Source: Pocillopora damicornis (taxonomy: Eukaryota). Taken from it: DNA of 64,000 nt. The position numbers were made by a program. How positions within the stretch are numbered: the stretch's first letter is position 1; each line of letters starts with the position of its first letter. Below, one piece after another: positions 36,001-45,000 of this stretch. The stretch covers positions 124,001 through 188,000 of the forward strand of contig NW_020846686.1 of the NCBI RefSeq assembly GCF_003704095.1, in the 5' to 3' direction.

Positions 36001-39000
36001 ACAGTCTTACTTTAACAGGAAAGTCAATTTTTACCCTATCACCTAACTCATCAACAATCATGTCCCACTGGTTTGGGAAGTGGCATCTTGAAAAATCTTC
36101 CTTTTTTAGAAGGATGTGCCCACTGTCATTGCTTTTCTTCCCTTTATTTTCAAAAAGAAAACTAAAATGTGTATGTTTAAAAGAAATGACAGTGGGCAGT
36201 GAGCTTTTGGACTTGAGATGCTCTAAAATTCCACAGTGTAGAGCTTCAGTGGCATCCTGAATTTCCTCGCCTGAAATCCTTGGGTTGAAAAATGACAAAT
36301 TAATACAGGTTGACTGTCAAATACGGTAGTAAACGAATTTCCAATATCTTCGTTTCTAATTCTCCTTACTTAACGTCATAAGGCAATATATTATTGTTTT
36401 AGCCACCAAAAACGACAAAAAATCAAACCTTGATCGTTTAAATAAATTTTTACCTCTTACTTCAGTTGAAACAACTTACTTCATCGTTTGATTTCACCAC
36501 AGACCTCTCTCCATCTTACAGAATTTCGCAAAGTTCACAAAACGTTTTAAAGGCTGTTGTTGTCCGTTGAGACATATTAAATCCCTGGTGATAACCACAA
36601 CTGATGCTCTGACTACTGAAAAATTGAACTCGTTAACTATCAACTTTTTAATCATGCATACGATTCAGCGCATATCAAACGTTATGTATTCCTCTCACTA
36701 TGTATCATGGTTCGCTTGGAAAGCTTTGAACATGTGGAACCCGTATATCACGGAGAGAACAAGAAAAGTTAAATATGATCATTTTGATGTAACAAACGTT
36801 TTACTCTGAAGTAATGTATGTTCTCCCTGTGGATGTAACATGGCGGTCAAGTACCAGAAGTCAGTTTTATACTCCGAGTCGTTTTTCGTCGAATAAGGAC
36901 TTCTGCCTTAGGTGCGTGTAATAAAAAAGAAGTAGGAATCGTTGGGGGAAACTCGTAGATACCTTGCCCCTTTTTTTTTTATGAACGCAGCTGTGAATCA
37001 GAGCAAAATTAACCCTCGCTAACGGCCGTGAAAAACGTTTTTAGCTTGGACTAGGTGTTCTTGTACCCCTGGTACATCATTTTAACACAAAAATCAAAAC
37101 AAAAAAAGAGAAAAAAAACTAAAAGCGAAAAAAAAAGGGAACGATTTAAATTGAATCGTACTTGACTCGTAACTCAAACTTGACTCGGACTCGAACTTAA
37201 CTTGCGATATGGTGTAACTCGGACGATAATTAAGGCACTTCGTGACGATTTTCCTTCTGTTATACGCTTTCCTGAATTTTTTGGACGCTCTGTCACATGT
37301 ACTTTCCAGATATTTGCTCGAATTCTCCTTTTACTGTAATTCAAAATGTTATTTTGTCAAACGCAACGTAACTCTGATCAAAACACTACGAACGCAGTTC
37401 GGAACTTATCACGCCAAGACATTTTAATTTCATGCTTTGTGCTCATTACATGACAGGTAGATTGATTGTGTTGCGCGGAGAATTGTTTTGTGTTCTCCAA
37501 GCTTTTCTCATCGCGAATTTTCGTTCGGAAACGAAAATTCGAAGAATAATCGCTCTTTGCTCTAGCGACATGGCGCGAAGTGCAGGTGAGAATCTTCCCA
37601 CGAGCTTTCGCACGAAAGTCCGATGAAATTTCGGAAGAACAATGAACGCAATATCGGCGATTTTTGTTTGTATAACTTTTGCACAATTCTGTACCAACAC
37701 TCTCCGTCATTACTCCAACCGATAACGCCAAGTGGGACATACATGAATAGAAAAGTAAGTATGAACACAACCGCTGGTTTTGCGTCTGGCGTTGACCGTG
37801 AATCCGCCGAGGACAGTCACGAGACTGAAGTATCCGTTCGTGACCGCTCGTGGTAGACCTAGTAATCTGGTTCGACAGCTGGAATGACAAAGAAGCCAGA
37901 GGTTGTGTTTTTTTATGGTCCTCCCTTTTCGGTGAGGTTTTTAACTGATTACATTTCTAGAATTTTACCATGACTCTAACGTGTTATTTTTTAACAGCCT
38001 GTTTAACTTAGTTTAGCTTGTGAACCCTGTTTTTTTGTTCTCAATCACCTTGAAATAATCAGCCCATGTAACTTATGAAGTAATATATCTTGTTCAAGTG
38101 GTACCGTGTGTTTTCCAAGATATAGAATTCAGTAGAGTCGGTACACTAGGCCCGCTTACTTGGTGTCGAGTCGTTCCGTCCCAGGCTGATGATGATATCT
38201 CTTGTCTCTGGTGAAAGATTGAAGGCTGGACGGGCCACCAGCCAGTGTTTGAGTGAGACCTCATATATGCATGAAAACCTATCCTAGGTGTGCAAATTTG
38301 TTAGCAGAGAGTGCAGGGGTAGGCATTCTGGAAAGGAGATTCTGATATTTCTCCCAGGCTGATAGACAATACATATTAAATTTGTTTTGATTTACTTTAA
38401 GGGAAAAGCTTTGTTTTTCAAACACCACTTCTCCCAGACTCACAAGAAAATTAACCCAGCTGAACTGTTTGGAGCTAATCCCTCTCTGAGCCACCGAGAA
38501 GTGATTCTGAAGGTTGTCAATACACTCAATGAGGTTTGTGTTGCAATACTAATAATTATTGGTGAAACTGTCTGAGTCATTGAATGCANNNNNNNNNNNN
38601 NNNNNNNNNNNNNNNNNNNNNNNNNNNNNNNNNNNNNNNNNNNNNNNNNNNNNNNNNNNNNNNNNNNNNNNNNNNNNNNNNNNNNNNNNNNNNNNNNNNN
38701 NNNNNNNNNNNNNNNNNNNNNNNNNNNNNNNNNNNNNNNNNNNNNNNNNNNNNNNNNNNNNNNNNNNNNNNNNNNNNNNNNNNNNNNNNNNNNNNNNNNN
38801 NNNNNNNNNNNNNNNNNNNNNNNNNNNNNNNNNNNNNNNNNNNNNNNNNNNNNNNNNNNNNNNNNNNNNNNNNNNNNNNNNNNNNNNNNNNNNNNNNNNN
38901 NNNNNNNNNNNNNNNNNAGTTATTATATGGCTGTATGGCTGTATGGGTGCAATCCCATCATAAACCATAGTTAAAGCTGACTTGTGTGTAGAACCAAATG

Positions 39001-42000: not shown

Positions 42001-45000
42001 CTGGCAGAAAATTCTGGATTCTAAAACATTTAAATAATATTATAATGCATGGTGTGGTATATTAAGATGATTATTAACAATTACAAGGATTGAAGTATTT
42101 TATAAATATGTATTTCCTGGCATATTTTAGTCACTGTTAACCTAATTTGTGGTTATGTAGCAGCATGCCTCTATGTTTCTTTTACATTGTTTTCTGTTGA
42201 AGTTGTCACCTGAAAGGTTTTGAGTAGGTACTTGCATATTTGAATTGACACTTTCCTCATGGAAAAATTTCCTCAAATAATTGAAGATTAGATTTGACTT
42301 AACAACACAACTGAGGAAGCCTCTCAAAGTATCAGCAATGCACTGATAACATCCTTCCTCTGTGTTGCAGGTCAATATGCCAATCTTCTTGGTGCATTTG
42401 TGTTCATATTTGTGGGAGTTCAGCAGACCTCCCAACCCAGGTCTGTTTGCTTGGCTTCAGAGACTTCACAACATCGATTTGTCAAACAAGGTTCAGTTAT
42501 CTTGATCTGTTTTGTGTGATTCCAGATTTCAGTAAAGCTGCTAATTCTCATTATAATGGTGGGGGGTTGTGATATAAACAGTTTGAAAAGAAAAAAATCT
42601 AGAGGCAGCAGTTATTACAGTGTAGAAGCCTTGTGTTTGTCATCTCTTATTCCAATTTTAATTTCTTTGTCATTGTAAGGGTTGAAATATACATGGAAGA
42701 TGTAAGGTAACTCCTTCAGAGGACAGATGACTAGGATTGCGTGATTCTTGAGATATCAACGGTATCACTACTATTATATACTGATACACGTTAATGGGGC
42801 GTGATTTTTTTGTTTTTGTGTCATTCATGTAGGCAACATTCTTTATTCATTCAAGTGATGATCATTCAAAGGCTGCCACTGCAGCAGGAGTGAAGTGTAT
42901 CAAGGTGAAATACGCACGAGTAGTAATAACTATTATTCGCTTTTTTTTCCTCTTATAACCGCACTCTATGTTTCTCAAGACTAAAATTGCCGATTTTGTT
43001 CTGGGTTCACAGGCAAATAAACTTCTCCAAAATCCATCGATGGTAAGCCTAAAAACTGATCTGTAATTTACTCGCAAATTACAGATTTGGCCAGTACAGT
43101 ACCAGCGGGAAGAAAGATGCGACAAGAAAACTCAAACGCGTACTTATAGCATCGTGGTTTGTTTGTGACTCACCTCAGACGCCAGGCCATTCTGTGCAAG
43201 CAGTAGTTTCATTTTGCGCTGCATTGCCAGAAAAACAGGGAGCTGCGCTCAATCTTTAAGCTTTGAGGAAAGTAAAATTTCATTAACGAAATCGCAAGAG
43301 AGGCGTCGAAATAAAAAGAAGGCTTTATGTAGCAGTTTTCTTAGCATTTAGAGAGAAGAAAAAGTAGCTTAAATTCATAGAACACGCATATCGGAAAAAA
43401 AATAAGCCGTTCTCGTAATAATGGTCCAGTTCACGCCTTTGTACAGACATGTTCAGGACTGAACCCACAACATACGTGAGATTTTAAAATTACTGAAACC
43501 CTTAAATTTCGTTCACTCCTAGTCATACCTTCTTATTTTATACAACTTCTTATTAATATAACTAACGACTCGCTGAGTAAAAATAAAAATAAACTCCAAC
43601 TTAAATACACATGAACACTTATCATCAATCCATGTTTGATTTATTCGGTAGATAGATACAGTGCATTGTGGGGTAGCGGCACGGGTTCCTGAGTGCGTTA
43701 GTAAGGCGAAGCTGACATGGCTTGACTCCCAGGGTAGACCTGAAGCTCGTATTCCTCTTTTTCGTGAGGCTGTCTCCTCCCATGACCGTACCGGTGAAAA
43801 CAAAGTGTCTTCAAATTGTGTTACAGTCACAAATAAATCATATACTCATGGTATATGTTTTAAAGATTTTGCTTCTCTAGAAAGGTTTGTATGGTCACAT
43901 CTGTTTGTTAAATTTATGGCCCTTATGTCTAGCCGTTCATAACTTAAATGTGTGTCAGTTGTGTTTTTCAGTAGCGCGTAACGAGAGATAGTGTCTTAAT
44001 GCACCAATACCATTTACTTCACCCACGAAAAAAGAAAAAGGACAATCAAATGTTGGGATGAAATAACAGAGCATGTCACTCATTCTGTAACAATATTTCT
44101 TCCTTAACAGATTCAACTTGCAGTACAAACAAGCTGCAATACCGACAGAGTCTGTGTCTGGTGATTTATTTAACTATGAAGGGTGTCCTGTTGAACTGAG
44201 TGCACGTAGGACAGAAAAACAATCAAGTGACGACAATACTATGTGTTTCTCTGGTACACCTGGAACACCTGTTGTTCCGCTCCATAAATCTCCAGTGCGC
44301 AGTAAAATCGATGAAAGGAAACGTAAGTTGAGACAGTTGTATGAATTATTCTCACTAACTTCCGCCAACTATTTCCAGTCGGACAGTCTTTTTCTTCTCC
44401 ATTGTTTTTAGACCCGCGGGAGGTAACTTCTTTCTTTTACTCTTTTGAATACCTGCACAGGTGATAGGGTTGTAGAAACATGGCCTTTGTCTACTCATTT
44501 TACTAGAAAAGTCACACTGCTATAGCACAAAAGAAGATAGTTTTGTTTTCGGCATGTTATTTACACTGGTATACTTTGTCTTAGCTCCTGAGACCATATG
44601 CCCGACTTTTGTGGTCAAAAGCTTAACTACTGAGAAGATTGAGAGTCATGCCTTCAGTCTGGGCCATTTCAGACGAGGCGAAGGTTGCACAAGACTAATC
44701 CGAAATGTTAGGAGTAAAACAGTTGAAGATGGTGTGCTTTTTAGTGCGAAGTGTAAGTACATGTAATGTGCCCTTCGGTTTCATAGCTTTCTAAAATTGA
44801 CGTTTAGAAAGAAGTAATCAAATTTTGGCTGATAACAGACCCCACACATAGCGGCCCGCCGAAAGTCCTAAGCTCAAGTCAAGTGATACCTCTTTCAATC
44901 GAAAAACCATACGACAAGTAGAGAAAGAACTTGCGGCTTGTTTTTTTGGAGAACGTGAGACAAAGGAAGAGCTTGAGTCTCCACACAGAGTTCTCGACGA

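Follow-up and report, generated by a model that had tools for sequence, protein, structure and literature searches.

The whole stretch of DNA analyzed here, hereafter the window, comprises 64,000 nucleotides of the coral Pocillopora damicornis (NCBI RefSeq assembly GCF_003704095.1, contig NW_020846686.1, positions 124,001 to 188,000 of the forward strand). It contains an intron-rich gene whose product begins with a module resembling the two domains of polynucleotide kinase-phosphatase (PNKP) and carries a SWIM zinc finger further downstream. An earlier note on this DNA had claimed that the catalytic residues of both PNKP-like domains are replaced while the frame stays intact, and had seen in this a selected double pseudoenzyme rather than a decaying pseudogene. 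We report here the structure of the gene, its conservation and the state of the two active sites, of which the phosphatase-like one appears to be empty throughout the family and the kinase-like one is likely dead.

Structure and conservation of the gene

The gene extended from 37884 to 49273 on the + strand and, in its long isoform, consisted of 19 exons with a total of 2310 nt, corresponding to 769 codons plus the stop codon. The window is AT-rich, with a G+C content of 0.31-0.42. Exon boundaries were fixed one by one from the ends of high-scoring segment pairs (HSPs) and AG/GT sites, the exons being read unjoined and the split codons resolved by eye. All 19 exons were flanked by AG/GT and the frame was open from end to end. 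The PNK-like module represents only the first 316 of the 769 codons. It is encoded by exons 1-10, which total 948 nt, correspond to 316 stop-free codons and are separated by nine introns, all of them GT..AG; the stop-free frame and canonical splice sites previously described were thus confirmed. Exon-by-exon translation also recovered the five motif strings GPPFS|GKA, INPAEL, FQWEGLF, RPP and IHS where the earlier note had placed them. The span that it had given, 37884..42904, contains all of these motifs and covers exons 1-9 only, since 42904 is the end of exon 9 and the gene continues. The annotation and organization of the gene are provided in Table 1.

The closest named protein was the uncharacterized protein LOC131772588 isoform X4 of Pocillopora verrucosa (626 amino acids, hereafter P0002), which belongs to a 90% cluster with 60 member sequences. 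In a tblastn search of the window with this protein the matching pieces were collinear, from 37884 to 46969, and 8 of the 626 residues differed (counted from the tblastn HSPs). When exon 4 was used as a lone query against longer proteins, P0002 was the single match, with 100% identity. A relative from Oculina patagonica (P0153, 792 amino acids) and others extended the match by two exons, as far as SILDEFI followed by a stop. In isoform X4 the C-terminus is ...EILHK, while the window has AAG at this point followed by a GT donor (46967-46971, + strand), beyond which the frame stays open; neither the stop codon nor the 3' exon of X4 is accounted for by the mapped exons. In addition, intron 15 contains a 54-nt open stretch in phase 0 (46485-46538, + strand), which encodes INAIPPNNVENVTTRSAK, matches a segment of the relative P0157 and is probably a cassette exon.

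The run of N at 38589-38917, an assembly gap of 329 nt, was checked first and was found to lie inside intron 2. Exon 2 ends at 38533 and is followed by GT, exon 3 starts at 39240 after AG, and both junctions are in phase 0. P0002 continues unbroken over this junction (NTLNE|GHSVVV), the 26 aligned relatives show no insertion at this point, and the alignment with the kinase domain of mouse PNKP also runs through it. Given that the gap is intronic and the flanking junctions are in phase 0, its length has no effect on the reading frame. A small unannotated cassette exon concealed in the gap is conceivable, with nothing in these data demanding one.

The protein belongs to a large family. A HMMER search against 1.84 billion representatives gave 172 matches at E ≤ 0.001, of which 78 had E ≤ 1e-10 and 22 had E ≤ 1e-30, including many full-length relatives of 450-1160 amino acids with 20-49% identity, and a further protein search started from the family alignment returned coral or other close relatives only. 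Coral relatives were 47-68% identical to P0002, and the same architecture was present in relatives from at least three named coral genera. An AlphaFold2 (AF2) model of P0002, built from a 55-sequence alignment, reached a per-residue confidence (pLDDT) of 85.5 and a predicted template-modelling score (pTM) of 0.69, with disorder predicted at residues 426-467 and 578-606. Domain-wise identity was calculated between P0002 and four coral or coral-like proteins (Oculina P0153, P0154, P0155 and Acropora cervicornis P0003). It amounted to 53-71% for the kinase-like, 57-66% for the HAD-like and 51-70% for the SWIM domain, and to 70-80% for the C-terminal helix, as against 7-42% and 24-48% in linkers 1 and 2, respectively, both predicted to be disordered. 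The much better conservation of the folded domains than of the linkers fits a maintained non-catalytic protein rather than a pseudogene. It must also be noted that P0154 and P0155, of 770-775 amino acids, are encoded on contigs of 2.8 and 3.9 kb, whereas 11.4 kb are needed in the window. The same coding length on such intron-less contigs suggests that these are spliced transcripts.

Pseudogene decay, or an error of assembly or gene prediction that left the frame open by chance, could be invoked on the basis of the assembly gap within the locus and of the end of isoform X4, which the window does not explain. We find this hardly credible in view of 2310 nt open across 19 canonical exons, an architecture shared among coral genera, transcript-like contigs among the relatives, conservation that follows the domains and a confident structural model. 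As far as can be judged from sequence, the gene is intact and expressed, and kept by selection as a non-catalytic protein. In this regard, the contention that it is selected and not decaying was well founded. The retention of enzyme folds, the loss of catalytic residues described below and the higher conservation of domains than of linkers are together the pattern expected of a pseudoenzyme.

Table 1. Exons and associated features of the PNK-like gene of Pocillopora damicornis; positions are those of the window.
Feature	Position	Strand	Content
Exon 1	37884..37931	+	Start codon; first half of Walker A, GPPFS 37917-37931
Exon 2	38402..38533	+	GKA 38402-38410; INPAEL 38450-38467, at the expected place of the kinase general-base Asp
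Assembly gap, 329 N	38589..38917		Intron 2; apparently non-coding
Exon 3	39240..39317	+	VVVDDEN...R: Asp pair resembling Walker B, and Arg76, conserved in the kinase-like fold
Exon 4	40280..40442	+	Rest of the kinase-like core (W110-x-R-E region)
Exon 5	40656..40732	+	End of the kinase-like domain (PPSEEEGF), then linker to the second domain
Exon 6	41275..41440	+	HAD-like domain, first strand; FQWEGLF 41296-41316 at the position of motif I DxDGT; motif II region
Exon 7	41917..41978	+	Helix of the HAD-like domain
Exon 8	42371..42490	+	SRPPNPG; RPP 42425-42433, at the position of the motif III Lys
Exon 9	42833..42904	+	FFIHSS; IHS 42845-42853, at the position of the motif IV acidic pair
Exon 10	43013..43042	+	Last helix of the HAD-like domain
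Exon 11	43652..43884	+	Conserved middle domain (IPLF ... GICFKD)
Exon 12	44111..44322	+	End of the middle domain and disordered linker (model pLDDT <50, residues 426-467)
Exon 13	44585..44752	+	SWIM-containing domain, N-terminal part
Exon 14	45792..45845	+	Strands of the SWIM-containing domain
Exon 15	46242..46342	+	SWIM zinc finger, CxC...CxH 46259-46303
Candidate cassette exon, 54 nt	46485..46538	+	AG/GT flanks, phase 0; skipped in isoform X4, present in P0157
Exon 16	46725..46798	+	Basic linker
Exon 17	46882..46969	+	TMYFLSSEELLQTAQEIL 46910-46963; strand plus helix resembling the MRI multimerisation domain
Exon 18, long isoform	47630..47760	+	Disordered tail
Exon 19, long isoform	48973..49273	+	Ends with SILDEFI 49250-49270, then TGA stop

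The kinase-like and HAD-like domains

The kinase-like domain comprises residues 1-165 and the HAD-like domain residues 166-316. Neither is apparent in routine annotation: Pfam run on eight single exons returned nothing relevant, and Pfam together with a PDB sequence search of the whole P0002 gave only SWIM and one chance match. The family was more informative. A profile of 26 members had the kinase domain of mouse PNKP as its best match in PDB (E 0.005), and Pfam AAA_33 matched 11 of the 26. For a profile comparison, 13 phage T4-type Pnkp sequences were drawn from named phage records; hhalign of the family against them gave a probability of 94.8% and an E value of 5e-8 over the first 98 columns only, that is, the N-terminal half of the kinase, and a probability of only 1.5% against T4 PseT alone. 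The Foldseek comparison of the P0002 model with mouse PNKP had an E value of 1.4e-8 over 163 columns with 24% identity. Profile, Pfam and Foldseek thus agree on a P-loop fold of the polynucleotide kinase type.

The residues of the active site were counted in 55 aligned sequences, with denominators that vary by column. The Ser/Thr of the Walker A motif binds Mg, and the kinase of T4 Pnkp uses general-base catalysis. In the window the Walker A motif is GPPFSGKA and does not conform to GxxxxGK[ST]. Among the relatives GK[ST] occurred in 29 of 49, together with GKE (3), GKA (2), NKL (2) and thirteen single variants, GKA being common to Pocillopora and Oculina only. Ala36, in INPAEL, aligned with the Asp of VNRD in mouse PNKP and with D35 of T4 in the family profile and in hhalign. 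T4 D35 was invariant in the 13 phage enzymes, while the corresponding column was variable in the family (Q8, S7, E6, K6, A4, R4 and T3 of 48), Asp not being among its seven commonest residues. The position of T4 R38 was a gap in the family alignment. Given these replacements, the kinase-like domain would most likely bind a nucleotide at best and would not phosphorylate 5'-OH ends.

Two observations speak against a dead kinase: GK[ST] is retained by most relatives, and the column immediately after the lost Asp, column 37, has an acidic residue in 32 of 48 relatives, and Glu in the window gene. Taken together they make a shifted general base or a nucleoside triphosphatase (NTPase) activity possible. 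The domain might then still be an enzyme, either an NTPase or a kinase using the Glu/Asp one column downstream, so that the protein would be a single pseudoenzyme in which the coral GKA weakens activity without abolishing it. The retention of Lys18 (38/49), Asp68 (44/50) and Arg76 (47/51) and the good alignment of the P-loop and strand-3 region with active polynucleotide kinases would fit such an enzyme. We consider it unlikely because the columns of T4 R34 and D35 are not conserved and because the P-loop of many relatives has degenerated independently (GSD, GRN, AVP, AIP, DKA, GRR, NKL, GKE, GKA), which indicates that catalysis is not what selection maintains. A dead kinase is therefore given here as likely only.

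The second domain was recognized by its fold. Foldseek aligned the P0002 model with T4 Pnkp chains of 287-299 residues over 328-346 columns, covering both domains (E 9e-7 to 1e-5), and with phage and baculovirus kinases over 340-370 columns; giant-virus kinases were also matched. The nearest ESM Atlas clusters of residues 1-316 (score 0.92) were all viral AAA_33+PNK3P proteins of ~300-320 amino acids, with PNK3P in 82-100% of their members, a lead and not a test. P0044, a relative lacking the kinase core, was modelled to isolate the second domain (pLDDT 81.5). Its best match in PDB was GmhB (2gmw_A), a capless phosphatase of HAD subfamily IIIA, with E 2.3e-3, a probability of 1.00, a template-modelling (TM) score of 0.62 on the target and 14% identity, and weaker HAD entries ranked after it.

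This assignment has results against it. At E ≤ 1, none of the 26 members was matched by Pfam PNK3P; hhalign of the HAD-like region with the T4-type phosphatase region gave E 0.73 (local) and 0.95 (global), or 0.17 and 0.81 when the family was represented by a distant subclade with Asp in the nucleophile column; and Foldseek on the P0044 model gave no PDB match at E ≤ 0.001. With HAD phosphatases matched significantly neither by sequence nor by profile, and with a best fold match of only E 2.3e-3 once the kinase is absent, the domain could be a Rossmann-like one of another origin, which was never a PNKP-type phosphatase and whose replaced residues are a chance resemblance. We regard this as improbable, given that the Foldseek alignments extend over the two domains of T4 Pnkp and likewise over those of other viral two-domain kinases, that PNK3P prevails in the nearest Atlas clusters, that GmhB is matched with other HAD proteins behind it, and that the distant subclade has Asp in the nucleophile column (10/54) and DD at motif IV. 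Even the non-significant hhalign of this subclade was in the expected register, with its Asp on D165 and its DD on D277/D278. A HAD origin of the second domain is accepted at the level of fold, its weak point being the lack of a significant sequence match to any phosphatase.

HAD enzymes work through aspartyl-phosphate chemistry. The nucleophile column of the relatives contained Q30, E12, D10, N1 and H1 of 54, with Gln in the window; DxD was found in none of the 54, the window having QWEGL instead of DxDGT. The column of the motif III Lys held Pro in 38 of 54 and Lys in none (Pro262 in the window), and at motif IV the window has His288-Ser289-Ser290, the DD being confined to the distant subclade. 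The absence of DxD and of the motif III Lys from all relatives argues that the phosphatase-like domain is dead family-wide. By these residues it cannot perform HAD chemistry in any relative examined, and its site is judged to have been empty since before the family diversified. The losses are shared by the whole family and hence are no event specific to Pocillopora. The dead phosphatase can be considered solid, as read from the alignment.

As regards what had been claimed beforehand, the motif equivalences with PNKP hold by alignment in the kinase, and in the HAD-like domain by fold and position only, where relatives with Asp in the same columns give further backing. The double pseudoenzyme stands in its phosphatase half, while its kinase half is likely and not certain. 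To the question of whether the substitutions are fixed among relatives, the alignment answers with DxD and the motif III Lys missing from all of them and with a variable Walker A. Relatives with both GK[ST] and DxD were to be taken as evidence to the contrary, and only the former is retained.

The distant subclade comprises P0032, P0039, P0042, P0049, P0050, P0060, P0069, P0079, P0088 and P0089. P0043 and P0048 were re-aligned with it, though they have N and E in the nucleophile column. The second Asp is absent from the whole subclade, DD at motif IV is present in part of it, and in several of its members SWIM is followed by R.LP.WM. The subclade looks like an intermediate state of decay.

In comparison with T4 Pnkp (PseT) and viral two-domain enzymes, the coral module has the same order, with the P-loop kinase ahead of the HAD phosphatase within ~300 residues; both domains are spanned by Foldseek and the kinase N-half is matched profile to profile. 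In contrast, of the columns invariant in the 13 phage enzymes (K15, R34, D35, R38, D165, D167, K258, D277 and D278) the coral protein keeps the P-loop Lys only, its second domain has no detectable sequence similarity, and it belongs to a cellular, intron-rich animal gene with ~450 more residues including SWIM. The animal enzyme (mouse 1yj5, 3u7e-h and 3zvl-n) provides the nearest kinase domain by sequence and by fold, sharing the P-loop, the VV.D..N strand and the next Arg, with 24-25% identity over ~160 columns. Animal PNKP has the order FHA, phosphatase, kinase. The coral protein differs in that its kinase-like domain comes first, FHA was not found by Pfam, Ala replaces the Asp of VNRD, and there is no DxD, no motif III Lys and no Asp at motif IV. 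An animal PNKP orthologue was thus rejected, on the grounds of the kinase-first order, the absence of FHA and of the catalytic residues, and membership of a separate, SWIM-containing family. GmhB differs from the second domain in possessing the HAD catalytic motifs.

The C-terminal half and its resemblance to CYREN/MRI

Residues 529-568 of P0002 gave the only Pfam match, SWIM (PF04434), with an E value of 4.6e-5 and 23.3 bits, the cut-off being 19.6. The CxCxnCxH pattern of this finger is present, and the window exon 46242-46342 is 100% identical to P0002. The likeness to other SWIM zinc-finger proteins is limited to CxC...CxH, SWIM being only a small part of the coral protein, and no SWIM protein with a PNK-like module turned up in the literature searched. 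Motifs were counted over the 52 members of at least 400 amino acids. A SWIM-type CxC...CxH occurred in 15 of the 52, and in several distant ones it is followed by a putative Ku-binding motif. This motif, R..P.W and mostly R.LP.WM, was found at an aligned position in 30 of 52 members, most non-coral relatives among them; in shuffled sequences the mean was 1.25 and the maximum 4. PMC4831024 gives R-X-X-P-X-W as the minimal Ku-binding core, and the 2026 preprint 10.64898/2026.07.22.740027 describes the Trp of this motif as being followed by Met in most species. The coincidence of the family motif with the published core is a pointer to DNA double-strand-break repair.

Two further elements resemble CYREN/MRI, an adaptor of vertebrate non-homologous end joining (NHEJ). 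The relatives have, 35-55 residues downstream of the Ku-binding motif, a strand-helix T.Y[CV]M[NST]E.EL...A..IL, which reads YCMN in P0007 and P0062. The MRI1 multimerisation domain is described in 10.64898/2026.07.22.740027 as a strand 54-YCMN-57 followed by a helix. The corresponding segment of the window, MYFLSSEELLQTAQEIL at 46910-46963, has MYFLS as its strand; its likeness to MRI is at the level of the motif only. A C-terminal tail resembling LD.IF was present in 20 of 52 members, the window ending with SILDEFI, and the MRI-X peptide ends with REIFFS (PMC4831024). The C-terminal half of the family would be collinear with MRI1 as described in these two papers: an APLF/MRI-type Ku-binding motif (A-KBM) R-X-X-P-X-W, the YCMN strand plus helix and a C-terminal Phe motif, in the family LD[DE]IF[S]. 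Differences are also evident. MRI is small, largely disordered and devoid of enzyme-like domains and SWIM; Pocillopora lacks the Ku-binding core, has the strand MYFLS and ends in ILDEFI; and homology with CYREN/MRI is traced through three short motifs only. A two-copy complex prediction of P0002 residues 585-626, aimed at self-association of the strand-helix and made without use of the alignment, gave a score of 0.07 against a mark of 0.32, and nothing is drawn from it.

Other data count against a Ku-binding adaptor. No [RK]..P.W was found in any + frame of 37800-49400, and the coral proteins P0154, P0155 and P0003 also lack the motif; the link to Ku is for this reason not established for Pocillopora. 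Pfam gave no match to the MRI family in 8 members at E ≤ 10, and ESM Atlas had no usable match for the C-terminal half of P0007. Oculina has KSLPKW, which is Ku-binding-like. In the same frame as the candidate cassette exon, intron 15 of the gene contains KKSLPVPLRW (46593-46622, + strand), similar to the Oculina KSLPKW apart from an insertion of four residues. Either chance or the remnant of a motif since lost could account for it. The literature searched contained nothing on the family beyond one sentence in the 2023 preprint 10.1101/2023.05.26.542399, which refers to a sea urchin PNKP-like protein fused to a CYREN/MRI-like Ku-binding motif.

In attention to the above indicated, we consider it fairly probable that the module is a non-catalytic binding module heading a break-repair adaptor; what was observed is the structure of the gene, its folds, the lost residues, the conservation and the distribution of motifs, while loss of activity, the scaffold role, the link to Ku and NHEJ and self-association are what we infer. 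The first 316 residues would descend from a polynucleotide kinase-phosphatase of the T4/viral type, with a P-loop kinase ahead of a capless HAD phosphatase. In the HAD-like site Gln takes the place of the nucleophile, and the second Asp is missing together with the Lys of motif III and the acidic pair of motif IV. The kinase-like domain retains its fold, the Gly-Lys of its P-loop, the two Asp that come after strand 3 and the conserved Arg. Its general-base Asp and its acceptor-binding Arg are absent throughout the family, and Pocillopora and Oculina lack the Mg-binding Ser/Thr as well. Selection would keep the module as a binding or scaffold domain, the dead end-processing module serving as a surface for DNA ends or for partners, and it would be followed by the middle domain, the SWIM zinc finger, a strand-helix element of putative self-association and, at the C-terminus, the motif ILDxF. 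Given the APLF/MRI-type Ku-binding motif of most non-coral relatives, an adaptor role in double-strand-break repair by NHEJ seems the most likely one.

By its appearance the family would be a longer relative of CYREN/MRI, headed by an inactive end-processing module. A more speculative extension, which we hold only tentatively, is that it represents the ancestral long CYREN/MRI, of which vertebrate MRI would be the surviving C-terminal adaptor and the dead T4-type module with SWIM the lost head. The module would then read unligatable 5'-OH or 3'-phosphate ends, tethering them to Ku unprocessed, and the Pocillopora line would have lost the Ku motif and kept the reader. If the link to CYREN/MRI is true, it would give an origin for the least conserved NHEJ factor and a testable idea of the job of its lost head domain. 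Pseudoenzymes derived from DNA-end-processing enzymes are little known, and here both active sites of a kinase-phosphatase would have been emptied while the folds were apparently held for very long. For corals, the gene is an uncharacterized and conserved candidate for genome maintenance. It also carries a warning for annotation, since Pfam detects SWIM only and the dead module needs profiles of relatives and comparison of folds to be recognized.

Other features of the window

Upstream of the gene, exons of a dual-specificity phosphatase of the MAP-kinase-phosphatase type were present at 19376-22109 (+ strand), with matches to Rhodanese (E 5e-6) and DSPc (E 1e-9 and 4e-28) and including the active-site loop VHCQAGISRS. 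On the - strand, 31904-32731 contains an open frame of 275 amino acids that Pfam did not match; it is rich in Glu, Lys and Leu and coiled-coil-like. Adjoining a run of N at 34030-34129, the region 34480-35712 (+ strand) has two long open frames (249 and 160 amino acids) with one stop between them and no Pfam match. Such frames are long for an intron-rich genome and may be transposon-derived or an intronless gene.

Downstream, on the - strand, there were three tandem exons at 49785-50279, 54913-55389 and 61447-61905, each encoding one CAP/CRISP domain (PF00188, E ~1e-20), the first of them starting ~500 nt past the stop of the PNK-like gene, on the opposite strand. The last two are followed on the - strand by very long Ser/Asp/Asn-rich open frames (55862-57952, and 62819 to the end of the window), for which Pfam gave no match. 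The CAP/CRISP exons look like tandemly duplicated genes for secreted proteins.

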